From: a virus
Lineage: Duplodnaviria > Caudoviricetes
Reading direction: 5' to 3' (one strand)
Virus record (IMG/VR): IMGVR_UViG_3300025621_000050
Coordinates: 1 to 25,714 of that record
DNA length: 25,714 nt
The notes below the pieces were generated by a model that saw nothing but the letters and a program-made list of their open reading frames with translations, was not told the DNA's origin and did no database searches. Below are positions 5,229-25,022 of this stretch, piece by piece (position 1 is the first letter of the stretch; each line of letters begins with the position of its first letter). The position numbers were made by a program, and so were the translations under genes.

Positions 5229-6752
5229 ATGAACAAATCAGCTAAAGCCCTTTACAGCTCTTTAGAAGGACACAGGTATCAATACCTAGACAGAGCTCGA
5301 CAGTGCTCTAAGCTGACGCTTCCTTACGTGATGCCTGAAGAAGGCTTCGGAGCACATAGCAAACTCGATACTCCATTTCAGGGCGTTGGGGCAAGAGGAG
5401 TAAATAACCTCGCCTCGAAATTACTGTTAGCACTTCTACCTCCCAACGCCCCGTTCTTTCGTCTTAACGTAGACACCTTTAAACTTCAAGAAGAGGGAGC
5501 ACCTCTTGAACTGATTACCGAGATTGAAGCTTCCCTACAAAGCGTAGAGGAAGCTGTGATGGCTGAGATCAGTCGTGAGTCATATCGCACTGGTCTCCAC
5601 GAAGCCCTCAAGCAGCTTATCATAACAGGGAACTCGCTTGTCTATCTGCCAGACGATGGTGGCATGCGTGTGTTCCGTCTGGATCGATATGTTGTTAAAC
5701 GTGACCCGATGGGGAATGTTACTCAGATTGTAACTCGTGAGAACCTTTCGTTCAAAACTCTTCCTGAAGAGATGCAGCAGATTGTTGGTGACGACGTGGA
5801 TGCGGACGGTAACGTCAGTCTCTATACCGCTATCCTTCTTAACGATTCTAACAAGTGGGAAATCTTTCAGGACATCAACGACACACGGGTTCCGAACTCG
5901 GAGGGAGCTTATGAGAAAGATAAGTCTCCATTCATTCCTCTTCGATTCTCTCGTGTAGACGGAGAGAACTACGGACGAGGATATGTTGAAGAGTATTTGG
6001 GCGACCTCCAGTCCCTTGAATCTCTTACCCGTGCTATCGTCGAAGGTAGCGCCGCAGCAGCAAAGGTTCTGTTTCTTGTTAACCCGAACGGCACCACACG
6101 TCAGCGTGTTCTCGCCGAAGCGCCCAACGGTGCTATCGTTCAAGGTTCTGCTCAGGATGTCACTACTCTTCAGCTTCAAAAGGGAAGCGACTTCCAAGTG
6201 GCTCAGGTCACAATGAACGAGATCAAAGATCGTCTCGGTCATTCCTTTTTGCTGACTTCTGGAGTTGTTCGGAATGCGGAACGTGTTACGGCTGAGGAGA
6301 TTCGTATGCTTTCCCAAGAGCTAGAGACTGCTATCGGCGGGCTTTATTCTCTTCTTTCGAACGAGCTCCAGATTCCGTTTGTTAACCGAATCATGTCGGC
6401 AATGAACAAGTCCAAGCGCCTTCCAAAGCTTCCTAAAGATATTGTAAATCCTGTGATCATTACAGGTGTCGAGGCGCTTGGGCGAGGTAACGATCTCCAG
6501 AAACTGGATCTGTTCCTTGCAGGTGCGGCTCAGGTCGTAGGGCCTCAAGCCGTTGCGGAATACGTCAACGTCGGGGAATACTTTAAACGACGCGCTACGT
6601 CCTTGGGTATCAAGACTCAGGGGCTTGTTAAAAGTGATGAAGAAATTCAAGCAATGATGCAACAACAGCAACAAATGCAGTTGACAGAAAAGCTTGGGCC
6701 TGCTGGTATTAAGGCGGTCTCTGATAATATAGGTGCAGAGCAATCCGTTTAA
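5229..6752 (+). CDS. Portal / head-tail connector (T7 gp8-like)
   Basis: Motifs LTLPY, QGVGARGVNNLASKLLLALLPPN.PFFRL, GENYGRGYVEEYLGDL, ERVTAEEIR and ITGVEALGRG.DL; 507 aa. Confidence 0.97.
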   Translation: MNKSAKALYSSLEGHRYQYLDRARQCSKLTLPYVMPEEGFGAHSKLDTPFQGVGARGVNNLASKLLLALLPPNAPFFRLNVDTFKLQEEGAPLELITEIEASLQSVEEAVMAEISRESYRTGLHEALKQLIITGNSLVYLPDDGGMRVFRLDRYVVKRDPMGNVTQIVTRENLSFKTLPEEMQQIVGDDVDADGNVSLYTAILLNDSNKWEIFQDINDTRVPNSEGAYEKDKSPFIPLRFSRVDGENYGRGYVEEYLGDLQSLESLTRAIVEGSAAAAKVLFLVNPNGTTRQRVLAEAPNGAIVQGSAQDVTTLQLQKGSDFQVAQVTMNEIKDRLGHSFLLTSGVVRNAERVTAEEIRMLSQELETAIGGLYSLLSNELQIPFVNRIMSAMNKSKRLPKLPKDIVNPVIITGVEALGRGNDLQKLDLFLAGAAQVVGPQAVAEYVNVGEYFKRRATSLGIKTQGLVKSDEEIQAMMQQQQQMQLTEKLGPAGIKAVSDNIGAEQSV

Positions 6753-9551: not shown

Positions 9552-12323
9552 ATGCCTTTAATCAACACATCGGTTCCGAACCTTATACAGGGTGTCTCAC
9601 AGCAAGCGGATATTATTAGATATGCAGGTCAATGTGAAGAACAGGAAAATGCTTTAAGTAGTGTTTCTGACGGACTGTCAAAAAGAGCTGGCGCGAATCA
9701 CATTGTAGAAGTCACTCAGAATAAAATTAAACAAGATAGCTTTATTCATTTTGTGGATCGAAGCGCTACGGAAAGATATGTTATAATACATACGGGAGAT
9801 TATTTGTATGCTTATAATCTTTTTACAGGCAGTCCAGCTTCCATCTGGTATAACACTGTAGAATATACTGATGGGTGGGCTATACCAGAGGGACATTACC
9901 TCAGAACAAGTGGCTCTCCGTTAGCTAATTTAAAAGGAATTACCATAGGAGATAGCTCCTTTATTACAAATAAGAATGTAGTCGTTGAAGCTTCCGACGA
10001 AGTAAATGACAGCTTTGCAGAAGAGGCTATTGTTGTAGTTAACCAAGGCGATTATGAAAAGAAATATAGCATTATTTTCGGAGAAACAGGGCCACAGTCA
10101 GGAACAGTTTTAAGTTTTGATGTTGATTTTTATAATGGTAAAACAGGAGAAGTGACAGGGAGTGCGATTGTTTTAAATGGGGAAACACTCAGTAATCCAG
10201 AAGGAAGTCCTGAAACAGCATCTATCGAGGTATCGCCAATTGTAAATATAATTCAATCTAGCGAAGATTTTACTCCTAATTTAACTAACCAAACTGGAAT
10301 ACTCAGTTTAACTGTGACTAACGGGATTAGCACTATAAGTGCTCCAATGGCAATATCGACAAACTCCAATGGACTTCTACTTTCTGTTACCATTACTGAA
10401 CCCATACTAGCCAACATACGCTTTGATGCTGCCTTTCTTTTTACTGTAAACGGACTTACTCAACTAGGATCTTTAGGCGTAAGAACTGTAAATACTGGGG
10501 CTGCGGATGCTTCTGCTGGAGGTAAAAACGCCGATACGTCTAATATTGCTTCTCAGCTTGCTGGAGGAACAACTGCTGGAACAAATAATACTGTAAGCGG
10601 AGCCATCCCTTCTGGATTTACAGCAGAAGCTCTTGGCGGTGTTATTCGCATTAAAAGGACAGACGGAGCGTCTTTTAGTATTTCTACATCCGACGGGTTA
10701 GCTGACGAAGGTTTATCTTTAGCTTACAAAAGTGTTGAAAGTCTTTCAGCTCTTCCTCAAAGAAACTTTAACGATTTCAAAATTAAAATATTAGGCGATC
10801 CTGACGTAGACCAAGATGACTACTACGTCAGTTTTAAGACTGATGACAATAGCATTTTTGGTGAAGGAGAATATATAGAGATAGCAAATGAAGGTATAGA
10901 AAAGGGAATTGATGTATCTACCTTTCCTCATAGGTTAGTAAATGACGAATTAAATTCTTTCGTTGTAGAAACGTGTCCTTTAGAGGATCGAGTATCAGGG
11001 GACATAGCTTCAAATCCTCAGCCTAACTTTGTAGGAAACAAGATATCTAATTTGATCATTCATCGTAATAGATTGGGAGTCTTAAGCAACGACCAACTGA
11101 CTTTCTCTGAATCAGACCAATTTTTTAACTTTTTTAGAGTTACCGTTTCTAGCTTTTTAGATTCAGCGCCTATCAATGTAAGTATCGCTACTAAAAATGT
11201 TATTAACATTATAGACGCAATCGGGTTTCAAGATAGCCTTATTTTGTTTACTCGTCGCGGTCAATATTCTGTTAAAGGAGAACCTACTCTTACAGCTAAA
11301 ACTATCGCTGTTTCTCCCTTAACTTCCTACGAGACATCAGAACTCGTGTCGCCTATTTCTCTTGGTTCGTATATTTATTTTGGCTTTGATAGAAAACAAA
11401 AATCAGGACTTAGAGAATATACAGTAAACACTAACACTAATACTTTTGACGCTTCCGACATTACGGAAGCCGTTCCGTTCTACATTGGCAAAAATATTAA
11501 AACCATTTCAGGATCAGCAACAGAGCAGATGCTTGCTGTCGTTACCGAGGACGATTTAGATACCATATATGTCTATAGTTACTTCTGGAGTAACAACGCT
11601 AAAGTATTGAGTGCGTGGTCTAAGTTTAAGATAAAAGGAGATATAGTTTCGAGTTTCTTTATTGATTCAAGTTTGTATGTAATAACAACGATAGAGGGTT
11701 CTACAAATATCTTAGAAATTAACTTAGAAAAACAAGAGGGAACAGCAGATGAACCTGAGATTCTTATGGATTATAGGTTCCCGTTAACTCTTCAAAGTGG
11801 ACAGACTCATATAGATCTTCCGTATTCTACGCCTGCGAATACCAAGTTTGAGGTCTACTCTAAGAAAGGTAGTTTACTTAAATCTACTTCTCATACTAGA
11901 CACATCACTTTGATGGATGCTCCTGAAGAAGAAACAGAAGTTTATATAGGGCTGCCTTTTAATATGAAATATGTATTTTCTAGGCAGATCTTTAAAGCAC
12001 CAAGTGAATCAAGCAAAACAGCCACAAACGCTATCTCTTCTCGTTTGAAATCAGGAAGTATATTCTTCAATAAAGCGAGAACTTTTAAAGTAACTGCTGA
12101 TGTAAAACTAAGGGATTCTGTTATTGCTACTTTTGATGCAAACACAGTAGGAGAAGCTTTTGTTTCTAAGACTGATAATAAAGAAGGTGTTTTCCGTTTC
12201 TTTGTTTTAGCTCCAGCCGAAGATACGACGATTACGTTGGAAAACGATACTGTGTTTTCGTCCTCATTTCTTAGCGCTGAGTTTGAAAGTTTCATTCATC
12301 AAAAGTCTTCTCGCTATGCTTAA
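9552..12323 (+). CDS. Tail tubular protein B / nozzle (T7 gp12-like)
   Basis: MPLINTSVPNLIQGVSQQ, GLSKR, SNPQPNFVG..I, RNRLG.LS, FFNFFR.TV, SGLREY and SAWSKF. Confidence 0.93.
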   Translation: MPLINTSVPNLIQGVSQQADIIRYAGQCEEQENALSSVSDGLSKRAGANHIVEVTQNKIKQDSFIHFVDRSATERYVIIHTGDYLYAYNLFTGSPASIWYNTVEYTDGWAIPEGHYLRTSGSPLANLKGITIGDSSFITNKNVVVEASDEVNDSFAEEAIVVVNQGDYEKKYSIIFGETGPQSGTVLSFDVDFYNGKTGEVTGSAIVLNGETLSNPEGSPETASIEVSPIVNIIQSSEDFTPNLTNQTGILSLTVTNGISTISAPMAISTNSNGLLLSVTITEPILANIRFDAAFLFTVNGLTQLGSLGVRTVNTGAADASAGGKNADTSNIASQLAGGTTAGTNNTVSGAIPSGFTAEALGGVIRIKRTDGASFSISTSDGLADEGLSLAYKSVESLSALPQRNFNDFKIKILGDPDVDQDDYYVSFKTDDNSIFGEGEYIEIANEGIEKGIDVSTFPHRLVNDELNSFVVETCPLEDRVSGDIASNPQPNFVGNKISNLIIHRNRLGVLSNDQLTFSESDQFFNFFRVTVSSFLDSAPINVSIATKNVINIIDAIGFQDSLILFTRRGQYSVKGEPTLTAKTIAVSPLTSYETSELVSPISLGSYIYFGFDRKQKSGLREYTVNTNTNTFDASDITEAVPFYIGKNIKTISGSATEQMLAVVTEDDLDTIYVYSYFWSNNAKVLSAWSKFKIKGDIVSSFFIDSSLYVITTIEGSTNILEINLEKQEGTADEPEILMDYRFPLTLQSGQTHIDLPYSTPANTKFEVYSKKGSLLKSTSHTRHITLMDAPEEETEVYIGLPFNMKYVFSRQIFKAPSESSKTATNAISSRLKSGSIFFNKARTFKVTADVKLRDSVIATFDANTVGEAFVSKTDNKEGVFRFFVLAPAEDTTITLENDTVFSSSFLSAEFESFIHQKSSRYA

Positions 12324-12894
12324 AGATTTAAATCACAAGATTTTTGAATGCGTTGAATCTACGCACCTGTATTTGCTGGAGAATCAAGAAGGAGAAGACT
12401 TAATCGTTACTGCTGAAAAGCAATCAGCAGGAAAAACTTCAAAAGAAGATCAACAATGGGAATCTGAAAAAGGAGGATTATACCTATCTATACGATTTAC
12501 GGATAGATATCTCATGCGTTCTAGGAAAAATTTTTCAAATAATATTGGGTATGAAATAGCTCAAGCATTAAGTTCAATCTCAAAAACAAATATAGTATTT
12601 AAAACCCCGAATGACTTCTACATTGGGGATTTTAAAATTGGAGGATCTTTAATTTCTTATTCTAATCTTACCTGTATTTATAGTCTAGGTATCAACGTAA
12701 ATCAAAAAAGTTTTTCACAACCACTATCCAACAAAGCAACATCTTTATTTTTACAAACAGCAAGCGAATACGACATCAGTCAGATTTTAAATATTGTTTT
12801 AAATAAAATAAATGATAAATTAAAAGAATACAGACAAGACTACCCTAGATATTCTAAACCGCTAAAGACAACAAAGTTTAAAGGAAAACTATAA
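12316..12894 (+). CDS. birA: Divergent biotin-protein ligase (BirA/BPL catalytic domain) homolog, 192 aa
   Basis: BPL motifs in order: VESTH (D-S-T-N), VTAEKQSAG (AE.Q.AG), QWES..GGLYLSI, FKTPNDFYI (KWPND), KIGG.LI (K.xGIL), LGINVNQ and ATSL. ATG 12316 overlaps the tail B stop. No N-terminal HTH and no C-terminal SH3-like domain. Confidence 0.8.
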   Translation: MLKDLNHKIFECVESTHLYLLENQEGEDLIVTAEKQSAGKTSKEDQQWESEKGGLYLSIRFTDRYLMRSRKNFSNNIGYEIAQALSSISKTNIVFKTPNDFYIGDFKIGGSLISYSNLTCIYSLGINVNQKSFSQPLSNKATSLFLQTASEYDISQILNIVLNKINDKLKEYRQDYPRYSKPLKTTKFKGKL

Positions 12895-13896: not shown

Positions 13897-14838
13897 ATGC
13901 TAATCAAAGAATACAGCAACGGTTGTAAGGCAGTCCTTGCCACTGAGGATCACGCTCGTGAGCTCGCTCCGTTGTTGCGTGAGTATGACTCCATTGAAGT
14001 TAGCGTAGGGCAGTTTGGTGATAATGAAGAGGCACTGCTGTATGGAGTCAGAAACGACGACGTAACCATCACAGGCTTAGACCCTGATGGTAAACCAATC
14101 GTCATGTTTGGCGTGGGCTCTAGTGATGATAGTATACCCTACATCTGGCTTCTTGGAAGTAAGGGCGTTCGTGACTACTGGTATACCTTTGCTAAGGCAT
14201 CACGAGAACTGCTTCCACACCTTTTATTAGATCATCCGTGTGTGGCTAATATTGTCCTAAAGGAATACGACGACTCTGTTCGCTGGCTTAGATGGCTAGG
14301 AGCAAAGTTCATACGAGAGGTTGAAGTAGGTGGACAAGTTTTTTACGAGTTCATTATAAGACAAAAAGAACCAACTTCTGTTGGTATGCCCGTTGAGGAT
14401 TTTAGAGAGAGTATAACTCTTTTTAATAAAAATCTACAAAGCTTACCGAACGCAATGGTAACTCGTGCGGAGATTGATGCTGTTAATCCTTTGGAACATT
14501 TCTTTGGCGACGGTATGTATATACGAAAAATCGTAATGCCAGCTGGTCAGGTAATTGTGAGCAAGATACATAAACAAGATCATCCTTATTTTATTATGTC
14601 AGGAGATGTGTCGGTTTTAACTGAGGAAGGTGTCAAGCGTTATAAAGCTCCATATTTTGGTATGACAAAACCAGACACACAACGGGTATTATTTACCCAC
14701 GAAGAAACCACATGGATAACCGTTCAAAGAACAAACAACACTGATTTAAAAGAAATTGAAAAAGAATTAACAGAAGACTCTTTTGATTATAAACTTTCAA
14801 ATACAGATTTTAATTTACTAACAGAAGGAACAAAATGA
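13897..14838 (+). CDS. Internal virion protein A (T7 gp13-like, GNAT-like fold) fused to a C-terminal cupin domain
   Basis: N-half: LAPLLREYD..E, MFGVG, IWLLGS, N.V....DSVRWLRWLGAKF. C-half: HFFGDGMYIR.I.MPAG..IVSKIHKQDHPYFIMSG...APYFG.TKP.TQRV...HEET.WITV. Confidence 0.78.
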   Translation: MLIKEYSNGCKAVLATEDHARELAPLLREYDSIEVSVGQFGDNEEALLYGVRNDDVTITGLDPDGKPIVMFGVGSSDDSIPYIWLLGSKGVRDYWYTFAKASRELLPHLLLDHPCVANIVLKEYDDSVRWLRWLGAKFIREVEVGGQVFYEFIIRQKEPTSVGMPVEDFRESITLFNKNLQSLPNAMVTRAEIDAVNPLEHFFGDGMYIRKIVMPAGQVIVSKIHKQDHPYFIMSGDVSVLTEEGVKRYKAPYFGMTKPDTQRVLFTHEETTWITVQRTNNTDLKEIEKELTEDSFDYKLSNTDFNLLTEGTK

Positions 14839-15350
14839 GTTTTGCAATAACTGCTATTATAACAACGATTGCAACAACAGCTCTCTCCATACGAGGACAA
14901 CAACAAGCCGCCGCCGCACAGGCTAAATACCAAAAGCAAGCAAGCGAAGCGGAAAACCAAAGAGCGCTGCAACAGATGTCCGCTGAACGTATTCAAGAAG
15001 CGTTCCAGAACGAAGAGCGAGCAAAAGAAATCGAATTAGCAGCCAAAAAAGCACGAGAAGCTAGATCGAGAGCAACTGTAGCTGCTGGTGAGTCAGGCGT
15101 TACTGGTCTAAGCGTAGACGCGTTGTTAAACGATTTCACGAGACAAGAAGCTACCTACCGTTTCGGGCTCCAGAGACAAGGACAGCAGATGGCTGTAGCT
15201 CGGGATCTTAGGTTAAAGGATATGGGGCTTCAGTCTTATAACACGCAGATTGCAATCAATAAACCAATCGCACAACCTGACTATGCTGGAGCGCTTGTTA
15301 GCGGCGTTAACACAGGTCTGAGTATTTATTCAGCAACTAAAAAACCATAA
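14835..15350 (+). CDS. Internal virion protein B (T7 gp14-like ejection protein)
   Basis: Hydrophobic N-terminus, Q/A-rich helices and the AAGESGVTGLSVDALL motif. ATGA coupling to the upstream gene. Confidence 0.85.
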   Translation: MSFAITAIITTIATTALSIRGQQQAAAAQAKYQKQASEAENQRALQQMSAERIQEAFQNEERAKEIELAAKKAREARSRATVAAGESGVTGLSVDALLNDFTRQEATYRFGLQRQGQQMAVARDLRLKDMGLQSYNTQIAINKPIAQPDYAGALVSGVNTGLSIYSATKKP

Positions 15351-17611
15351 TGGCTCAAAAAACATTAAAACAACTTCTCGGCTCTTCAGGCGAAAGAGAA
15401 CAGGTAGACCTTAACCTTGATGAAGCTACGTTCCGAGCTCCGAACGTTGCAGCTGGACAGTATTCTGTCCAAGTTCGGCAAGCTCCTACACAGAATACGG
15501 CGCTTACTTTAGCTAAGTCTCTTCAAAGTTTCTCTGGTGTTCTCAAAAACTACGCAGACGTTCAAGAAGAAATTGGAATAAAACAAGCCGCAGGAGTTGA
15601 GGACAAGGACTTATATAAAGCACTTAAGAAAGAGAATCCTGCTGCGTTTATTGCATTTAAACGAGACAACGCATACAGGAACGCGCTATACAAAAGAGCT
15701 CTTACTTATGACATTCTTCCATCTCTTGATACCGATTCAGAAGGACTACTAAATATTGACGAGTTTGGAGCCAAGACAAACAAATTCTTAGATAGCAGGC
15801 TAGACCCTTACATCGAAGAAAAGTGGAATGATTTCAGCGAAAAGGTTGGAGAGTATGCTAACGATCCTGCGGCTAAAGCTGTTTGGAATGCTGCCATATC
15901 TGGGTGGCGTTCTGATATGGTTAGTAATTATAACGACAGGATTGTATCGTATAACAAAGGTGCCCAAAAGGAAGAGCTAGGTCTTCAGATTGAAGGAGTT
16001 CTTCGCCGCCGCGTAGACGATCAAGGAAACCAAATACAACCTGATTTTAGCAGCTTACCTGATATCCTTCAGAATAGAGATAACCTGATGGCTCAAGATA
16101 ACGTCTCTAATATAGAACGGACTCAAATTTTGGCAACTGAGGTAAGTAACCAAGCTCAAGGTCTACTGGCCGAAGGACGAGTAAGTGATGCTGAAAAGCT
16201 TATTGCTATTACGGAAGCTACTAAAATAAATGGTAAACCTGTGTTTCGCACAGGAGAATCTCGTCGTGCATTTGCAGCTCTTAAACAGCAGATCGATAAC
16301 ACAAGCGATCAGGAAGACGAGTTATCTAAAGCTGATATACGTAGAACATACACTGGTAAGGCTATTTCCGTTTATGAATCACTATCAGCAATAAATAGTT
16401 CTGAAGAAATGGATAACATTACCAGAAAAACTATTATTGATACGTTTGAAACTATTAACCCAAATATTTCTGAAGAAGAGATTAACCAGAAATTAGAGGA
16501 TATTTTTAATCACCCTGTTTCTTCTACGGAAGGATACGATCTAGCGCTTCGTCAGCTGGCTATTAACGGATCTGATCTCGGTAACAGCATATATTTTGAC
16601 ACAAAAGCAGATTTGAATCGAGAGTTAGTAACCAGACAAAACAGAACTATTATTACTACAAGTTTAAGCGACAAACAAAAGTCTCAGTATATTTCCGACT
16701 TTTCTGAGTGGAAAAAGGATAACCCACAAAAAACAGCAAAACAGTGGATATCTTCCCAAGGTCTTAAACTCTCTCCATTCCAAGAGCTACGAGATAAAGA
16801 CATAGAACTTAGCCAAGGTAATTGGGTGTTCGATAACCTATATTATAAAAACTCTGAGGATACGCTGGTTAATGCTATAGATCGTGCTGTTGCTCCTGAT
16901 TTAGTAGGATTAGAAGAAGATCTAGATATAACAAAGATAATGATTAGCGGAATGACGGATCAGCTTAAAATTAACCTCAGCTTGGAAGCACAAGATTACG
17001 CAAGAAATCTTGATCCACTACTTTCAGCAGAAGAGCGGAATGTTATGATGCGGGATTTTATACAATCAAAATCAGGTGAGTATGCTCAACGAGCTAGTGA
17101 TTTTAATAAAGCATTTCAAAGCAGAGGATTAATTAAGGATGAAATGAGTGAAACCGAAAGAGCCCGAATACAGACAGCTAGTGCTGAGGTAAAAGATAAA
17201 GCAAAGAGACCAAAGAAGGTAGTTTACGAGCATTTAGAAAACCCAAATATTAGATATTACTCTAAGTTTGTTGAGAACGAAAGAGAGACAATGCTACAGC
17301 GAGGCGACGATCTTCAGCTTCAAAAGTCTCTTATCAACAAAGGTTATCTAAGCTGGGATCCGTCTTCGTGGAAACTTCTTGATGAGACAGGTCTTTCCGC
17401 TCAGGACGTAAAACTGTTTGGAAATGACGCTGAACTGAATCGCGTAACATCTGATTGGAAAGATGTTATGATAAAAGAACTTTCTCTTGAGGAATTGACT
17501 GATGAAGAAGAAAAAATTAAAGATACATTCCAAGATTTCGGTATATACGATTTCTCAACTTTAAACACGTTCTTAGCTGAACAAGGTCAATTCTTCGAAG
17601 ACAGAGACTAA
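15350..17611 (+). CDS. Internal virion protein C (T7 gp15 positional equivalent)
   Basis: 753 aa, helical and charged, with LAKSL..FS..L near the N-terminus. Lies between the gp14-like and gp16-like genes; TAATG coupling. Confidence 0.7.
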   Translation: MAQKTLKQLLGSSGEREQVDLNLDEATFRAPNVAAGQYSVQVRQAPTQNTALTLAKSLQSFSGVLKNYADVQEEIGIKQAAGVEDKDLYKALKKENPAAFIAFKRDNAYRNALYKRALTYDILPSLDTDSEGLLNIDEFGAKTNKFLDSRLDPYIEEKWNDFSEKVGEYANDPAAKAVWNAAISGWRSDMVSNYNDRIVSYNKGAQKEELGLQIEGVLRRRVDDQGNQIQPDFSSLPDILQNRDNLMAQDNVSNIERTQILATEVSNQAQGLLAEGRVSDAEKLIAITEATKINGKPVFRTGESRRAFAALKQQIDNTSDQEDELSKADIRRTYTGKAISVYESLSAINSSEEMDNITRKTIIDTFETINPNISEEEINQKLEDIFNHPVSSTEGYDLALRQLAINGSDLGNSIYFDTKADLNRELVTRQNRTIITTSLSDKQKSQYISDFSEWKKDNPQKTAKQWISSQGLKLSPFQELRDKDIELSQGNWVFDNLYYKNSEDTLVNAIDRAVAPDLVGLEEDLDITKIMISGMTDQLKINLSLEAQDYARNLDPLLSAEERNVMMRDFIQSKSGEYAQRASDFNKAFQSRGLIKDEMSETERARIQTASAEVKDKAKRPKKVVYEHLENPNIRYYSKFVENERETMLQRGDDLQLQKSLINKGYLSWDPSSWKLLDETGLSAQDVKLFGNDAELNRVTSDWKDVMIKELSLEELTDEEEKIKDTFQDFGIYDFSTLNTFLAEQGQFFEDRD

Positions 17612-17621
17612 AAAATATAAC

Positions 17622-20600
17622 ATGAGCATTGAAAAACGATTAGACTACACCAATCCATCAGGGTCTCTTGAAAAGCCTTCTGTTTCTTTGGATACAGAGT
17701 TTGATACTGAGGACCGAACTGAGGCTCAACTTGCTGCCTTAGAAGCTCGACAGCTTATAGATGAACAAGTAAGTGCTGGAAAACAGTGGACAGCAACGGG
17801 TGCATCTCTCGTAGCGGAACTAGGTGGAGGTCTTTATCTTTCTCATAAACTTCATCGATCTGCAAAATTTGCACAAGGCGCTAACTACTTAAGAACAGCT
17901 GTTAAGACTCTTAGAGCTGCGAAAACGGCATCAGTCGCTGGTATCGTAGCGCCTGAGCCAGCATCTACTGTAGGTGGTATAGCTACATACGCCGTAGCAG
18001 AAGCTGGTATATGGGCTCTTAGCAATGCAGCAGGACAGCAGATAAGAATTTCAATGGGTGTTCAGGACGAATACTCTGCTGGAGAAGCTATTGCTTCTGC
18101 GGTATTCGGAGCATCAATCACAGGTAAGGTAGCAGACAACGTTTTAGGACTTGGGACTAAAAGTCTAGCGGATCAAAAACTTTGGAAAACAAGAGAACTT
18201 GTTAAACAAGGAAGTAAGCTTGCTGTCAGTGGTGCTGTCTTAGGAATTGCTGAAACCGCTATGCGACAAGAGCTCCAGCTAATTTTAAACGAGCGCGAAA
18301 ACCGAGACGTATACGAGTATTTATTGGCTGCTGGTATAGGTGGAGGATTGAATACTGGATTTGGTCTCATCGCCTCGACAGGTAAGTGGGGACGTAACTT
18401 AGCTCAGAAAACAGCGAAAAATAGTAGAGAAAACATTAACAATCAGATCAACGCTCTTAAAGAGGAGATGGAGATTGTAAGAGCTAAAGGAGGAGGACCA
18501 GCTAGAGGAAAAGTAAAGAACATAAGTAGTAAGATACGACGGCTCGAAGATTCTCTTCTCATTGTGGACGACATCGATGAGATGATCCAGAGCTCGGGAA
18601 AAACTATTGAGTTCATGGAAAGTCCGTATGGACAGCAGCTAGTTCAGGCAGAGAATTCAAAGATTGTTATACCAGACGAGCCGTCTATACCTACTCAGTC
18701 CGCTAAGAAAGCTGATGAAGCTATTGTTGAGATCCCTAAACAATCAAAGCTAGAGGGAGTCCCTGACGCAGCTAACGCTCAGAAAACACAAGTAGCCACA
18801 ACGACCCCAACGTATGTAAAAGCTGCTGATATTCTTAACAAAAGTAAAACTGGAAACATCCTAGATTACGGAGCAGGAAGAGGAAAAGGTTCGGAAGCTA
18901 TTGGAGCTGATAGTTTCGAGCCGTTTCCTAGAGAAGGATTTAATCCAACATATAAGGACTCTGGTAGTATACCGAGTGAATCGTATGATAAAGTAATCAG
19001 TGCTTCAGTTATCAATGTAGTTCCTAAAGACGTTAGGGATGGTATTGTTAAAGATATTGGAAGAGTTCTTAAACCTGAAGGAGAGGCTATCATAACAGCT
19101 CGGACAGTAAGTGACGTGTCCGCAGCTAAGAACAAAACAACATTTGAAGGTGAAGAAAACGCCTTTGTGATTGGGGATCAAGCAACTGGAACATTTCAAA
19201 AAGGTTTTACCCAGTCAGAACTTGAAACATACGTTAAGACGCAACTGGGGGATAATTTTGAAGTCGCAGCTGCTCCAAAAACAGAAGATGGTCAGAAAAT
19301 AAATGGAGCTGCTGTTCTTGTTCGTAAAATACGAAGCGATGCGGACGCCCCAACACCTCCTTCACCTCGTTCAAAGGAGGAGCTCGAAATAGAAGGAAAT
19401 AAGTTCCTTGAGCAGCAGGGTTTAGGATTAGACGACTTTGTAATCGACCCTATAACTAACCAACCTTCGCCTGTCCCAGTATCTGGTGCTGGTGGAGCTA
19501 GGAAGCCTACGTTGGCTGAAATTGGTGCCTATAGACTTCTTACGTATAAAAGATACGAAAAAGGAGGATCACTTAAACAAGGGGTAACTTTTCCAATGTC
19601 TAGACCAAAAAGTTTTGGCGAAGCCGTCGATCTTCTTATTGATCCGAAGTCTAATATGATAGACGGAATGGATGAAAGGACGGAAGGACTTTTGGATATT
19701 CTTAAGTTAATGCGAAAGCAGTTTCCTGAGATGATGAATGAGGTTAAGATATTCACATATGGAAATGAACGAGCTCACTATTCAGAGTCTTCCCAACAAA
19801 TAGGAGGAGCTTCTGGAATAAGGGTAGCAAAAGGAGAACCTTTAGAAACTATTGTTCACGAAGCTGTTCACGCTGTTACGGCTAAATACATATATCAATA
19901 CGTAAAAAGCTATACAATTAACAAAACAGGAACAAAGGCTCTTGCTATAAGTGGTAAGGAGTATTTAAAACTGCTTGAAAATACTGTAGCCGATCAAGGT
20001 AAACCTCTTCTTATAAGAGAGCTGTCCGAAGTTTATCTCGAAACGATAAAGCGGATGGGGGTTCGTAAACAGATTGAAGCAAAATTAAACGCAAATCACG
20101 GAGGTGACCGAGTTAAGTATAACGGTTATAATTACGGATTAGGTAATCTTCACGAATTTTTATCCGAAGCACTGACAAGTTCTCAGTTTCAACGTGAGTT
20201 AAATTCAATTCAACTTAGTCGAAAGGGTCGAAGCGCTTGGAGCCAGTTTACTAGCATTATAAAACGTCTACTTGGGTTTGATGTAACAAAAGGCTCTGTT
20301 TTAGACGAAGTTCTCTCTTTAACAAGTGCTATCGCTCGGGATAACGAACAGATTTATAAAGCAGCTCGGAATGAGAGAGAAAGAAGCTTTGCCAGAACGA
20401 TGGGTCAGAAAAAACCTGAGCTGTTTAGAACTAAATTCAAAAAAGGAGTGTTATCAGAATTAGATCCTAACTCCAAAGAAGCAGTAGCTTTGTCTAATTT
20501 GCCTGCTTTTGAAGAAGGGTTCTTACCAAAAGGTGAAATAACAAAGAAGTTTGAAAAGAGTAAAGTATGGCAAGCAACGTTTGAAGGCGAAATTGATGGG

Positions 20601-23600
20601 ATTGCCTACGAAGTAAAAGCTTCAACCCTAGAAGAAGCAATGTCAAATGCAGCTATGCAACACGTTACCAAATCAATGCAAGCACGACGTGATGAAGTAA
20701 TTTCTTTCGATTCGATTAAACGAGCAGCGAACGAGAACGAGCTAGCTATTGATATAACACCTCTTAACACTCTTAAGCTCGGAGCTGGTTTTGACTCTAA
20801 CGTCGAGATCACACTGCGTAATCAAAAGGGGGATATTGTAAACTACAATGACCTTGATAAAAAGATGCAATACGAGGTCAACTTAGCCCTTAAAGCTAAT
20901 GGTGGTGTGTATATAAATCCTGCTGATGTAGCTGATATTGGGACTCCTAAAGCCTTTGTTAATCCGAAAGATCAACTTAACTTCCTCAACGAGTTGGATG
21001 CAGAACCTCCCGTTGTTGTTGCTGTTGATGACGCAGGAACTACTCCTCCTCCAACTCCACCTCTTACCGAAGAAGGGGCCGCAGGATCTGGAGGCGATCC
21101 TAGATTCGAACAACTTCGTTTACTTAGAAAGAAGCTTGCGAAGTATACCAACATAGAGGGCGAAGATCTTCCAGACGAAGAGGAATTATTGTCTCGTTTT
21201 ATACAAGTAGAGTTTCCTGAAATGGCTAGGGAAGCTAAAAAACTTGATCGTGACTCAAAAGAATTGATGGATAACGCGTTGGCTGTTCTTAGTTCACAAG
21301 GCCCAAACCCAACCGTATTGCGTGAGCTGTATGACGAAGTGGTCTTCATGCGGAAGGCTAATGTTGTCCGAGATACTTTGGAGACTACAGCTGGTCGAAG
21401 TCTTCAAGCAATGAATAAAAAGGCAGATATTTACAAATACGAGGGCCAATATAGCGTCCGAGCTCGTATGGAAGATGATGCACTTAACGAACTTGAAGAA
21501 GTCCTTAAAAGCATGATAACAGGGAAAAATACTGGAGAAGAAGATAGCCTTGAAGAGCTTCTTACCGATTTCCTTGATGACTTCTTTGACGTGGATCAAG
21601 ACTTTGTTGTAGATGCTGTAAACGTCCGCGATGAGCTGAAAAATCTAGATGCTGAAGAATTAGATGCTGAAGATCTGAAGATTACTCAAGAAACTGAAGA
21701 AGTTGTTCCTATTGAAGGCACAGGAGCCAAAGAAGGCACAGGAAAAACAAAGGAAACGAAAAAGAATAATTCTCTTTCCTTGGAAGAGAAACTAGCAAAA
21801 CGTCAGAACAAGATTGAAGACCAGATCCAAAAGCTTGAAGAACGTCTTGAGAAAGCAAGAAAAGAGTTCGTAGCTTCGACTCCAGTAAAGGATCAGAACA
21901 ATACTGATCTAGGTCTTGAGGATGAACTGATTGACGCTGGGGCCCAGCCGAAGCCAGAAAAGACTCCTAAAGATCCTCGCATCGAACGTCTTCAAACTCT
22001 TTTAAAGTTCTATAAAGACTCAAGAAACGAGCTAAAAACTCTTATAGAGCGTAAACGTGAACGCGCTCGGTTAGCCGCTATCGAAGGAAGCAGTGACATC
22101 ACTCTTCAAAAGAAGGAACTTGAGAAGCCAGAAAAAGATCGCAAACCTACTAGCTTAGACCAAGTCAATAAAGACATCCGAGACATACGCAATCGTATGC
22201 GGTCTCGTCTTCGTGAAATTGAAGCAGCTGAACGTAAGCTTGAGGGAGAATCGGCAGCTGATGCTTCGGCGCGTATACAGCAAAAGCTTATCAAAAAGAG
22301 AGAGAGGCTACAGGAACAGCTCGACGGGTATCGTGCTCGGTTTACAGATCGAGGCCCGACAGAGGATTTTACGAAGATTAAGCAGCAAAAGATTGAAGAC
22401 GAGCAGACCAAGCAGCTTGAAAAGCAGATTCAGTTCTACCGCAACGCGGAAAAAGAAGTAGACCAAACAAAAGAACTGAGCGAGAAACTTGCCAAGCTTG
22501 CTGAAATCGAAGGACGCGGAGTTATGTCTGAGCTGGAAGCTACTGTCGGGACGAAACCTAAGCCGCCGAAAAGCGAAGATCCGAAGATCAAAGAGCTTCG
22601 TAAACAGATCAACGAGTCGAAAGCTAGAATGCGTAAAAAGCTTCAGGACATCGAGAAAGCAAGAATGGATAACGAGCAATTACAGCTGCTGTTTACCTTG
22701 GAAAAGAGCTTTATGTCCCAACTAGGCACAGACAACGCTTCAAGGTTTACCAGATTTTTTAGATCAGTAAGATCAGCACGAACGATGTCTCTTATTGCTC
22801 AAGTTCCTTCCATTTTGGCGGGTGTTCCGACTGGAATAGTTGGAGGAATTAAACAAGTCTTTAGAATTCCTGCTAGTTTTTTCTCTTCTCTTAAAGAAGC
22901 ACACGGTTCATTGCCCTCCAGAATCAAAACCTCAAAGCTTCTTGCTCAGTCAGAAGGACGAGCCTTGTTTGCTATGTTCCCTAAGAGTAAAAAGGAAGCA
23001 AAAGAATATTGGGAATCGTTTAAACGTTCTTACCTTATGAACCAATCCGTAACCGACGGAGTTAATAATAAATACGAAACTGAAGGGGCTAAATACGGAA
23101 CTCCAAGGGGAATGCACGCCCTTGTTGTTAGGGCGCGAACAAATGCTCAGATACGGATAAATGCTCGTGACTCCTTTGTTACTAAACTAGGTGAAATGGT
23201 TCGGCTTGGTAAGTTTGGTCACCTGTTCTCCTTTGGAGTTCGTGGAATCATAGGGGTTGATGACGTATTTAAACGCTCTCTTTTTAAAGCCCGTATTACT
23301 GCGGACTCGTATCGACGCGCTCTTTTAGAGTTTCCAGAAGGAGGCGCTAAAACAGAAAAGCGAGCAAAGGAGCTATACGAAACAGCTTGGGTAGAACAAG
23401 ATGGGTTACCAGTCTTAGCCGCTAACAACGAATTTGCATTTGAGATAGATAGCGTAAGAAAGGATCTTTTGTTTGCGTCTAATGCTGACGATGTTGAGGA
23501 CCTTGTTACTTCTGTCGTGGACGATCAGATTAAAATGTTTAACAAAACGAAAAGCAGCGACAACATATTTGGCGTGGTATTTGATGGGCTTATGCCTTTC

Positions 23601-25022
23601 TTCGGTGTTGCTACTCGTGGCGTATACAGAGCTGGAAGACTTCAATTCTTTCCTGCTATTGCTCTTAGAGCGGCTTTAGCAAATCCATATACAGCTAAAA
23701 TAAAACAAGTTGAAGGGATTATTGAAAAGCTTCGTGAGACTGCTACGGACAAAAAGGTAAACAAGGAATCAAGAGATGATGCGTTAAATGCAATTAAGTC
23801 GAATCTTGAGCTGGTTGAATCCCTTAAAATAAATAGACTTAAATATAACGAGGAAATCCTTACAGAGGTCTTGATGGGAACCTCCGTAGCAGCCACTGCA
23901 ATGTTGGCAGGAGCGGCAGGTAACATGACTGGATCTTTAAGCTTCCTTAGCTCTGATCAGCAAAAACGAGCGCGTGAGTATGGTATTCAACCGTATCGAA
24001 CACTTGGCATGGACTACAGAGCAGCACTTCCGTTTACTTTTGCAATGTCTATGTATGCGGATATCGGAGCGTTTCTTCACTTGAGAAACGTTCAAGCGGA
24101 AACGAACCAACCAATCTTAGACCCTGAACTTCACTTGTTCGAAGTCATGCGTCGATCTTCGCTGTCCGCTGCATCAGAACTTCCACTGTTTAGCGGAATA
24201 AACAGTTTCCAAGAACTGACGGACAACAGAAGCGGCACAGCAGAACAAGCGGCAAGCGCTTTGGAAAAGATCTTAACAAGCTACATCCCTGTTCCTGCCC
24301 AAGTCCGTAAGATTGTTAAAAAGGTTACTGTGGATAACAAAATTGTGGATCTGAAGGGAGGAAGCTTCTACGACCGAGTAGCCTATCAAGTGTTAGGCGT
24401 TGCCCCGATGAACTATAAAACGAATCACTTTGGTGAGAATTTAGAGACCGATATCAACTGGATCACCGAGACCGTGTGGAGACAGGCACCTCGTTTCAAA
24501 AGGGATAAGGGTGTAAACTTTGAAGGAAGTAATGTAACAACCTTTGAAGATATAATTGGAGCGGACTCACAAGGTATTATCCGTGTTAAACCTACTTATC
24601 TCTCACAAGGAGTTAAGATGGAAGACTTCCGTAACGAAGAGGGAGTTACTCTTAAATATTACTACGCTCAACAACTGAGAACGTATAAGCAAAGATACAG
24701 GGGAAGAAACAGAACACTTAGTGAAGCTGTTAACGAACTTATCAACGACCGAGCTTGGCAAAAGAAGTATGAAAGCGGTTATGAGCCAGATCCGAACAAC
24801 CCTCAAAAGTATACCCAAAAGGGTCTCGAAGAAATAGATGAGATACTTACAAGCTACTACACTAATCTAAGAAAAAATATAGCGAAGGATAAGGATGTTA
24901 TGTTTTCCTTTATTAACAAAGACGATGTTACGTTAGGCAACTTTATGCAATCCACCCTAGACAACATGAACTCTAACATAAGAAATAAGCCCTTTTCGTT
25001 AAAGGACTTTTACGAACTATAA
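17622..25022 (+). CDS. Giant internal virion (ejection) protein, gp16 position, polyvalent: SAM-methyltransferase, HExxH zincin and coiled-coil repeats
   Basis: 2466 aa. G/A-rich hydrophobic N-terminal helices; ILDYGAGRG (about 18858-18884); HEAVH (19857-19871) with a downstream HEFLSEA; C-terminal helical region with PFFGV..R. Confidence 0.8.
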   Translation: MSIEKRLDYTNPSGSLEKPSVSLDTEFDTEDRTEAQLAALEARQLIDEQVSAGKQWTATGASLVAELGGGLYLSHKLHRSAKFAQGANYLRTAVKTLRAAKTASVAGIVAPEPASTVGGIATYAVAEAGIWALSNAAGQQIRISMGVQDEYSAGEAIASAVFGASITGKVADNVLGLGTKSLADQKLWKTRELVKQGSKLAVSGAVLGIAETAMRQELQLILNERENRDVYEYLLAAGIGGGLNTGFGLIASTGKWGRNLAQKTAKNSRENINNQINALKEEMEIVRAKGGGPARGKVKNISSKIRRLEDSLLIVDDIDEMIQSSGKTIEFMESPYGQQLVQAENSKIVIPDEPSIPTQSAKKADEAIVEIPKQSKLEGVPDAANAQKTQVATTTPTYVKAADILNKSKTGNILDYGAGRGKGSEAIGADSFEPFPREGFNPTYKDSGSIPSESYDKVISASVINVVPKDVRDGIVKDIGRVLKPEGEAIITARTVSDVSAAKNKTTFEGEENAFVIGDQATGTFQKGFTQSELETYVKTQLGDNFEVAAAPKTEDGQKINGAAVLVRKIRSDADAPTPPSPRSKEELEIEGNKFLEQQGLGLDDFVIDPITNQPSPVPVSGAGGARKPTLAEIGAYRLLTYKRYEKGGSLKQGVTFPMSRPKSFGEAVDLLIDPKSNMIDGMDERTEGLLDILKLMRKQFPEMMNEVKIFTYGNERAHYSESSQQIGGASGIRVAKGEPLETIVHEAVHAVTAKYIYQYVKSYTINKTGTKALAISGKEYLKLLENTVADQGKPLLIRELSEVYLETIKRMGVRKQIEAKLNANHGGDRVKYNGYNYGLGNLHEFLSEALTSSQFQRELNSIQLSRKGRSAWSQFTSIIKRLLGFDVTKGSVLDEVLSLTSAIARDNEQIYKAARNERERSFARTMGQKKPELFRTKFKKGVLSELDPNSKEAVALSNLPAFEEGFLPKGEITKKFEKSKVWQATFEGEIDGIAYEVKASTLEEAMSNAAMQHVTKSMQARRDEVISFDSIKRAANENELAIDITPLNTLKLGAGFDSNVEITLRNQKGDIVNYNDLDKKMQYEVNLALKANGGVYINPADVADIGTPKAFVNPKDQLNFLNELDAEPPVVVAVDDAGTTPPPTPPLTEEGAAGSGGDPRFEQLRLLRKKLAKYTNIEGEDLPDEEELLSRFIQVEFPEMAREAKKLDRDSKELMDNALAVLSSQGPNPTVLRELYDEVVFMRKANVVRDTLETTAGRSLQAMNKKADIYKYEGQYSVRARMEDDALNELEEVLKSMITGKNTGEEDSLEELLTDFLDDFFDVDQDFVVDAVNVRDELKNLDAEELDAEDLKITQETEEVVPIEGTGAKEGTGKTKETKKNNSLSLEEKLAKRQNKIEDQIQKLEERLEKARKEFVASTPVKDQNNTDLGLEDELIDAGAQPKPEKTPKDPRIERLQTLLKFYKDSRNELKTLIERKRERARLAAIEGSSDITLQKKELEKPEKDRKPTSLDQVNKDIRDIRNRMRSRLREIEAAERKLEGESAADASARIQQKLIKKRERLQEQLDGYRARFTDRGPTEDFTKIKQQKIEDEQTKQLEKQIQFYRNAEKEVDQTKELSEKLAKLAEIEGRGVMSELEATVGTKPKPPKSEDPKIKELRKQINESKARMRKKLQDIEKARMDNEQLQLLFTLEKSFMSQLGTDNASRFTRFFRSVRSARTMSLIAQVPSILAGVPTGIVGGIKQVFRIPASFFSSLKEAHGSLPSRIKTSKLLAQSEGRALFAMFPKSKKEAKEYWESFKRSYLMNQSVTDGVNNKYETEGAKYGTPRGMHALVVRARTNAQIRINARDSFVTKLGEMVRLGKFGHLFSFGVRGIIGVDDVFKRSLFKARITADSYRRALLEFPEGGAKTEKRAKELYETAWVEQDGLPVLAANNEFAFEIDSVRKDLLFASNADDVEDLVTSVVDDQIKMFNKTKSSDNIFGVVFDGLMPFFGVATRGVYRAGRLQFFPAIALRAALANPYTAKIKQVEGIIEKLRETATDKKVNKESRDDALNAIKSNLELVESLKINRLKYNEEILTEVLMGTSVAATAMLAGAAGNMTGSLSFLSSDQQKRAREYGIQPYRTLGMDYRAALPFTFAMSMYADIGAFLHLRNVQAETNQPILDPELHLFEVMRRSSLSAASELPLFSGINSFQELTDNRSGTAEQAASALEKILTSYIPVPAQVRKIVKKVTVDNKIVDLKGGSFYDRVAYQVLGVAPMNYKTNHFGENLETDINWITETVWRQAPRFKRDKGVNFEGSNVTTFEDIIGADSQGIIRVKPTYLSQGVKMEDFRNEEGVTLKYYYAQQLRTYKQRYRGRNRTLSEAVNELINDRAWQKKYESGYEPDPNNPQKYTQKGLEEIDEILTSYYTNLRKNIAKDKDVMFSFINKDDVTLGNFMQSTLDNMNSNIRNKPFSLKDFYEL

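Follow-up and report, generated by a model that had tools for sequence, protein, structure and literature searches.

The window analysed here, all 25,714 nt of the viral record IMGVR_UViG_3300025621_000050, encodes a cysteine-free protein of 2466 aa at the place of the third ejection gene in a T7-like structural module, and inside this carrier protein lies a class I S-adenosylmethionine (SAM)-dependent methyltransferase domain that occupies an exchangeable slot. We tentatively favour, at somewhat short of an even chance, the reading that the domain is injected from this slot of a head-packed giant protein and methylates a host protein or RNA early in infection. A first-pass annotation, made from the sequence letters, had proposed a SAM-dependent methyltransferase domain at 18770–19330; our bounds of 18777–19340 agree with it, with a class I fold and intact SAM motifs, and the motifs it quoted (ILDYGAGRGKG, SFEPFP, YDKVISASVINVVP, RVLKPEGEAIITAR and GTFQKGFTQSELETYV) are, together with both proline-rich linkers (IPDEPSIP and APTPPSP), all in frame in the open reading frame (ORF) 17622–25022. 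The carrier and the parts of its domain are:

17622..25022, + strand: 2466-aa carrier gene in the gp16/IVP-D position, modular and of polyvalent type; an ORF lying after a gp14 homologue and a 753-aa orphan and before the small terminase gene; 0 Cys
18777..19340, + strand: class I SAM-dependent methyltransferase domain (aa 386–573), bounded by AlphaFold2, Foldseek, VIA-align and the family hidden Markov model (HMM)
18858..18920, + strand: SAM-binding motif I (D415, G417, G419, G421) and acidic E433, conserved in 96–100% of 100 non-redundant domains
19008..19022, + strand: post-strand-4 motif V-I-N-V-V with invariant N465 (N465 in 100/100, V466 in 99/100; strand 4 is model residues 70–76)
19191..19208, + strand: family signature T-[FY]-Q-K-G-F (Q526 in 100/100, K527 in 96, G528 in 98), the T-F-Q-K part being common to TIGR04096

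Library matches of the single sequence were weak: Pfam Methyltransf_11 scored 20.9 bits against a cut-off of 21.2, TIGR04096 scored 26.1 bits (E 3.5e-6, cut-off 150) over positions 25–153 of its 478-position model, and searches of PDB sequences gave nothing better than an E of at least 0.095. We regard the domain as real beyond these matches because AlphaFold2, Foldseek and VIA-align all support it. The AlphaFold2 model, built from a 22-sequence alignment, reached pLDDT 89.2 and pTM 0.88; Foldseek returned at least 500 PDB matches at E<=0.001, those listed being SAM methyltransferases; and the best VIA-align match, 2p8j, gave Z 16.1 with an rmsd of 3.1 over 167 aligned residues. The Rossmann methyltransferase fold on which the annotation had staked its claim is thus found. 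The profile check that it had proposed for aa about 385–570 gave, besides the weak library matches, an HHalign probability of 98.85% between the family and TIGR04096-type domains (E 4.2e-17, 122 columns; 100 sequences against 6, the latter trimmed with the family HMM, and the independent hmmscan match agrees). The suggested resemblance to this phosphorothioation-associated family holds as kinship and fails as membership (26 versus 150 bits), so that, on the sequence comparisons, we place the domain as a sister of the TIGR04096 domain and not as a member.

Across 100 domains pruned to <70% identity from 332, G419, N465, R472, G487, R494 and Q526 are invariant, D415 being retained in 99 and E433 in 98. 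Motif I and E433 serve SAM binding in the established anatomy of class I methyltransferases, and V-I-N-V-V occupies the site where DNA amino-methylases carry [SDN]PP[FYW]. In both pairs compared (the window with L001 and with L003, partners that are close to each other), dN is 0.11 in the domain versus 0.31 in both scaffold blocks, while synonymous sites are saturated in domain and scaffold alike (pS 0.83–0.85 versus 0.80), which rules out recent transfer as an explanation for the domain's high identity. Judged from model and sequence, the domain is an intact, constrained class I SAM methyltransferase, far beyond chance. That it should be an inactive relic or a binding decoy is therefore most improbable: it is dispensable in many relatives, but SAM-site and substrate-site residues are invariant over 100 diverse copies and dN is three-fold below that of the scaffold.

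An exchangeable cargo slot

The domain sits within a larger unit that the first-pass annotation did not detect; it missed both the exchange of this cassette and the zincin motif that follows.

18707..19346, + strand: exchangeable cargo cassette of 640 bp (aa 362–575), bounded by contig junctions in sequencing run X15 and by the break in similarity to locus L110

Relatives of the carrier fill this slot with GNAT, ADP-ribosyltransferase (ART)-like, ParB or other domains, or leave it empty. Searching with the C-terminal scaffold recovered 21 proteins, 11 with the methyltransferase domain and 10 without. Two of them, P0220 and P0221, are mostly 85–100% identical to the window protein outside aa ~370–580 and unrelated inside, the slot of P0221 holding a GNAT (E 4e-4). 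At the DNA level, L110 (the P0220 locus) is 92–95% identical to the window on both sides, similarity stopping at 18721 and resuming at 19344. More distant relatives carry ParB (P0227, E 9e-4), an ART-like domain (P0222) or a methyltransferase plus ART (P0025); the ART-like scores of P0222 and P0025 are 24 and 29 bits versus 8.2 for the best of 1200 shuffles, and the L158 copy matches Pfam ART-PolyVal (E 4.5e-5). The nameable cargoes are mostly group-transfer enzymes with a cytoplasmic cofactor (SAM, acyl-CoA or NAD+).

Some cargoes were left unnamed. That of P0220/L110 looked ART-like by eye and scored 5.6 bits, under the shuffle maximum of 8.2, with only an Atlas lead of 0.86, and, although inspection by eye suggested ART-like cargo in L133 and L165 and a GNAT-like one in L152, Pfam gave no relevant match for these. 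The L110 cargo is flanked by a 70-bp direct repeat (87%; L110:6015–6084 and 6612–6681), a possible footprint or substrate of exchange. A closely similar unnamed cargo at L133:8267–9082 and L165:7430–8164, in two scaffold clades, suggests horizontal movement of cassettes.

The slot could be spanned in 46 of 80 viral scaffold loci, of which 35 are empty and 11 hold cargo (a methyltransferase in 3), with 37 distinct slot sequences. Our scaffold tree is a quick version with no bootstrap and with long branches, and we used only its tight sister pairs, which carry unlike cargo (P0222/P0223, L149/L152, L165/L172 and P0025/L156). Because the P0025 methyltransferase clusters with those of unrelated carriers (FastTree support 1.0), apart from that of the window, its phylogeny suggests two separate entries of the methyltransferase into the scaffold.

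The forms of the slot were compared in eight sequencing runs, all as contigs and with rough, per-contig depths. In X15, both flanks are on one 22.7-kb contig (depth 45), where 472 other letters separate 18706 from 19347; the methyltransferase is on a separate contig of depth 5.2. In X4 the left flank lies on a contig of depth 128 and the cassette on one of depth 18.9; X7, from the same study, is alike, and loose ends in both translate to peptides exclusive to the GNAT cassette of P0221. Single contigs from two other studies bridge the cassette (18639–20162 in X8 and 18255–20462 in X10), which rules out an assembly chimera. X13 and X17 contain the methyltransferase form with gaps and no alternative; the methyltransferase form is also in X3, with one loose end at 18703. 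The slot is a cassette whose methyltransferase and GNAT forms coexist in single samples. Exchange between near-identical genes, with coexisting alleles, has the look of a host-conflict locus, and the cargoes may serve as alternative effectors at the start of infection, each suited to its own hosts or defences.

Probable virion delivery of the carrier

The ejection genes around the carrier and the remaining parts of the carrier itself are:

14835..15350, + strand: T7 gp14 homologue, an ejection protein (PF24072, E 2e-20; phrog_805); 0 Cys
15350..17611, + strand: 753-aa orphan in the gp15 position, assigned by position only; 0 Cys
17760..18626, + strand: conserved N-terminal scaffold block of the carrier, from BLAST blocks and an anchor HMM; retained also in empty-slot relatives
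19692..20321, + strand: zincin-like metallopeptidase region (HExxH at aa 746–750 and a downstream E-F-x-x-E helix), a motif-level call
21939..25019, + strand: conserved helical C-terminal scaffold (aa ~1440–2466), found in 21 proteins, with 80 viral loci kept of 100

The structural module of the window is T7-like, comprising portal, scaffold, capsid, tube, nozzle, fibre, a gp13-like gene, the gp14 homologue, the 753-aa orphan, the 2466-aa gene and the small terminase, so the carrier follows the gp14 and gp15 positions. All three proteins of the ejection series lack cysteine, the carrier over its full 2466 aa. The same is true of 95 of 107 carriers in the loci, of 65 of 74 giant carriers and of 98 of 144 further carriers versus 5.3 expected, the carriers being related and so not 144 independent trials. 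Schitoviridae ejection proteins have likewise been reported without cysteine (PMC11445570). From this context and lack of cysteine we consider the carrier likely to be packaged and injected, as the annotation had supposed; our literature search found no virion proteomics paper for any carrier.

In the most likely picture, a helical ejection scaffold carries a cargo bay set between linkers, and in the window lineage a zincin motif comes next. The carrier would be packaged and cross the envelope like T7 gp16 and N4 gp50, after which the domain, bounded by its linkers, would refold in the SAM-containing cytoplasm, where the neighbouring zincin may cut it free. The C-terminal scaffold model (776 aa from 12 sequences, pLDDT 63) is mostly helical, and its fold search gave nothing at E<=0.001, the best Z being 8.9 on a 54-residue helical hairpin, a result that speaks neither for nor against homology to gp16. 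No cultured phage was found to match the scaffold C-terminus.

All 18 aligned copies, a set that includes duplicates, retain the zincin motifs; these have no Pfam match, and their Atlas matches are mostly unnamed. They fit the description of MPTase, and such proteases have been proposed to release domains (PMC5512222). This region and the stretch after it (19692–21100) are optional, being absent from shorter scaffold relatives, and loose ends at 19979 and 20089 hint at additional variable sites.

The domain family reaches well beyond this carrier. Profile searches returned 2217, 1060 and 555 clusters (50% identity) at E<=0.001, 1e-10 and 1e-30. The family is nearly phage-only, because a pattern scan was confirmed for 292 of 385 candidate stretches in viral contigs versus 8 of 261 candidates in 185,579 genomes, 5 of the 8 being strong and on contigs <23 kb. 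At E<=0.001 the domain occurs in 74 proteins of 1356–4316 aa. Outside it, 182 carriers fall into 63 groups, many of the singletons being short proteins with little to compare. Members include giants in the gp16 position, proteins between portal and scaffold (CRP-3 gp36), short genes at the terminase–portal junction and standalone-like proteins of 190–250 aa with little besides the core. Co-domains in other carriers are those of polyvalent proteins (ART-PolyVal, LPD22/23/38/39, cell-wall hydrolase and lysozyme). The mycobacteriophage protein Myrna gp97 (L032:10774–14409) is recorded as a tape measure, yet its gene belongs to the head block, immediately ahead of the capsid genes, and it carries the domain, which is also found in Phabba, Bigswole and ScoobyDoobyDoo.

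Among 37 representative loci examined of 107, a terminase, portal, scaffold, capsid, ejection or tail gene lies within two genes of the domain in 29. Virion-linked copies all lie in late genes adjoining portal, terminase or scaffold, which would suit a domain acting late in the producing cell, in virion-protein methylation or head assembly, and becoming a passenger only by fusion to a head protein. We think this improbable: emptiness of the slot in 35 of 46 loci and its occupation by unrelated enzymes in near-identical genes are unexpected for an assembly function, and cysteine is avoided in the domain itself (3 Cys in 18,308 residues), in keeping with transit across the envelope.

Candidate substrates

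Fold and conservation indicate that both the SAM site and a putative family-specific substrate site (N465, R472, R494 and Q526) are intact, and the methyl acceptor would, in the reading we favour, be a host macromolecule and not N6 of adenine in DNA. We favour a host protein or RNA because the slot-mates are predicted protein modifiers, because the DNA-methylase motif and the helicase are missing, and because the domain, which can also stand by itself at ~200 aa, is not basic (24 K+R versus 27 D+E; family median net +2). In polyvalent proteins, host proteins are the predicted substrates of GNATs and ARTs (PMC5512222). The nearest folds by VIA-align act on small molecules, peptides or tRNA (Z 14.4 for Trm9 and 13.0 for METTL6); 3sm3 (Z 14.9) and a toxoflavin N-methyltransferase (Z 14.2) are also among the matches, and no DNA amino-methyltransferase is among the 50 structural matches listed.

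The comparison with P1 DarB drawn by the first-pass annotation does not extend to the type of enzyme. In DarB-type proteins the domain is a gamma-class adenine methylase that bears NPP(Y/F) and is accompanied by LPD36 and an SF2 helicase (PMC5512222). The motif [DNSH]PP[YFW] is absent from the window protein and from all of the 100 non-redundant family domains; Pfam matched neither an SF2 helicase nor LPD36 in the window protein, which also lacks a DEAD/DEAH-type motif, and the single Walker-A-like string in the carrier, at aa 1369, is inside a low-complexity linker. A DarB-type or C5 DNA methylase is ruled out by these missing motifs, the window protein having no cysteine for C5 chemistry.

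DNA could still be the target by other chemistry. In this alternative, less probable than the host-macromolecule reading and next to it in our ranking, the injected domain would methylate entering (or packaging) phage DNA in cis, by a non-NPPY route, and so blunt restriction or phosphorothioate-based defence. Kinship with TIGR04096 speaks for it: of three inspected plasmid copies annotated as such, one adjoins a cluster of SspA/DndA desulfurase, DUF4007 and PAPS reductase, one is two genes from SspH and one is near an FtsK-domain gene. So do a SAP domain beside the methyltransferase in L037 and L044 and the short versions between terminase and portal, which recall the methylases of phage ParB-terminase loci (PMC4738411). 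The missing motif, cysteine, helicase and basic charge, together with the fold matches, weigh against DNA, as does the C-terminal part of TIGR04096, where Pfam finds no match and no recognisable DNA-binding domain. PADLOC gave a weak mad2 match alone (E 0.0026), and our literature search found no function for the TIGR04096 family. No dnd or ssp neighbour is among the 20 window proteins scanned, which have phage replication or virion functions or are orphans. Large plasmids of Vibrio, Geobacillus and Aneurinibacillus carry remoter standalone relatives, as do T4-like Vibrio phages, where the gene adjoins that of the late sigma factor; matches in VH7D-like Vibrio phages prompted us to consider a link with DpdM, which is an unrelated DUF3109 metal protein (bioRxiv 2023.04.13.536721).

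A broader form of the DNA alternative is speculative and, taken whole, unlikely. Here the clade and TIGR04096 would make up an NPPY-less class of DNA-modifying enzymes, the phage form writing at the DNA entry channel an undescribed mark (on a ring nitrogen or the backbone) that counters phosphorothioate-linked defence, and populations would swap it for acetyl- or ADP-ribosyl-transferases at one slot, a diversified injected counter-defence locus.

Several observations count against the host protein or RNA that we favour, or against its delivery. With its structural neighbours tied to within ~2 Z units, the fold singles out no substrate; that the GNAT and ART slot-mates act on proteins is itself a prediction; and use of the slot by ParB, the SAP domain directly 5' of the methyltransferase in L037 and L044, and the place of TIGR04096, the nearest named family, beside DNA phosphorothioation genes all point to nucleic acid and suit DNA equally. 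Some carriers contain cysteines (8 in CRP-3 gp36, 7 in Myrna gp97), 8 of the 37 loci have no structural neighbour match, and three standalone copies adjoin a sigma factor, GroES or FolE/dCTP deaminase. The annotation's label "gp16-like" rests on gene order and absence of cysteine only, as our searches found no PHROG, PDB-sequence or fold match between the carrier and T7 gp16.

The last of the substrates considered is a small molecule, such as a defence-signalling nucleotide or a cofactor, with drainage of SAM as a variant; we consider this quite unlikely. Most of the top structural matches are small-molecule or uncharacterised methyltransferases, and standalone copies lie beside nucleotide-metabolism genes, as in L099. 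The tie among fold neighbours takes weight from the first point. Ejection proteins are expected at few copies per virion, and this favours a stoichiometric macromolecular target over a metabolite pool. The standalone member L099:631–3360 has a GTP cyclohydrolase I gene on one side and a dCTP deaminase two genes on, and its domain is one of few in the family with cysteine.

Genome setting and relation to known systems

The capsid of the window phage is best matched by an Autographiviridae genome (62.8%), and the runs containing the stretch, among those listed, are marine, estuarine, aquatic or freshwater metagenomes. Elsewhere in the window, a LipB/LplA-family match (PF03099, E 4e-8) at 12283–12894 lies in a stretch of low GC (33–36%) between the genes for nozzle and tail fibre, and 13897–14838 joins a gp13/IVP-A-like N-terminus (phrog_308) to a tail-fibre adhesin-like C-terminus. 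The stretch 14353–14874, which has no similarity in L110, is a second exchangeable piece. Upstream of the portal, an 806-aa protein (1938–4358) matches phrog_10356, "virion structural protein". At 846–1196 there is a dATP/dGTP diphosphohydrolase domain (PF18909, E 4e-20), a family frequently associated with modified-base phages.

Polyvalent virion proteins with a DarB-type methylase, enzyme passengers on IVP-D and the co-ejection of P1 Dar proteins are already known. What appears to be new is the enzyme clade, its link with TIGR04096 and the swap seen directly: our literature search, with subscription journals largely outside it, found neither the clade described nor any T7-like ejection protein with an allelic cargo slot, and the available text of PMC4738411, PMC7824862, PMC10853773, PMC12839542 and PMC8056088 does not name the clade. 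Polyvalent-protein methylases are called "mostly" monophyletic in PMC5512222, whose available text does not contain the clade and whose supplements could list it.

Enzymes delivered with the genome act ahead of any phage gene expression, and the present clade would be a second large one of likely injected methylases beside the DarB type, with another active site and 1060 clusters (50% identity, E<=1e-10). Because phages that can be cultured encode members of it (Roseobacter CRP-3 and CRP-738, Pelagibacter HTVC103P/104P, Microcystis MJing1 and the mycobacteriophages Myrna, Phabba and Bigswole), the clade is testable now, and knowing the domain's substrate would offer a first way into the phosphorothioation-associated methyltransferase, as yet uncharacterised. 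The 640-bp slot, tolerated in nature and present as two alleles in the same water sample, also marks a site at which an ejection protein accepts foreign cargo.

Among known systems, the carrier resembles T7 gp16/IVP-D, N4 gp50 and DEV gp71 as the third, largest gene of the ejection operon and as a helical protein, and it is cysteine-free like N4 gp50 and DEV gp71; it differs in having no detectable sequence or fold match to them, and no transglycosylase or polymerase domain was found in it. Passenger enzyme domains are an accepted feature of gp16/IVP-D-type proteins (PMC4819975, PMC11445570). P1 DarB and H66 gp60/F116 IVP-D are likewise virion proteins with a SAM-binding domain that needs to act in the cell (PMC4819975, PMC12810830), H66 gp60 having a methylase SAM site on IVP-D (PMC4819975) and the P1 Dar proteins being co-ejected (PMC12810830); the window domain differs from them in lacking the NPPY motif and the helicase, and none of the H66, F116 or P1 records is among the 25 phage records that match it at E<=0.01. 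T4 Alt, too, is packed in the head and injected, and modifies host proteins by group transfer (PMC5512222), although it is a stand-alone ADP-ribosyltransferase and so a functional analogy only.

As an enzyme, the domain has a homologous catalytic counterpart in TIGR04096, with D-Y-G, V-[LI]-N-V, R and T-F-Q-K..E-L in common, but it scores far below that family's cut-off, covers only part of the model and stands in a phage virion context without Dnd/Ssp genes in the window. Trm9, METTL6, toxoflavin N-methyltransferases and CypM are among the nearest solved class I folds (Z 12.6–14.4), at 12–19% identity and in ties that allow no inference of substrate. For the carrier as a whole there is a close parallel in the phage polyvalent proteins (PMC5512222), giant late-gene proteins with unrelated enzyme domains and a zincin motif, whose ART, GNAT, ParB and LPD22/23/38/39 partners recur in the family of the window domain; the carrier, joining a methyltransferase and a zincin motif in a 2466-aa gene of the virion module, follows this pattern of a large late-gene protein that combines unrelated catalytic domains. 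Their methyltransferase is of the NPP(Y/F) DarB type, with LPD36 and an SF2 helicase, unlike the one described here. Cassette recombination was raised as a possibility for polyvalent proteins by Iyer et al. 2017 (PMC5512222), and in the present carrier exchange at one slot is seen directly.

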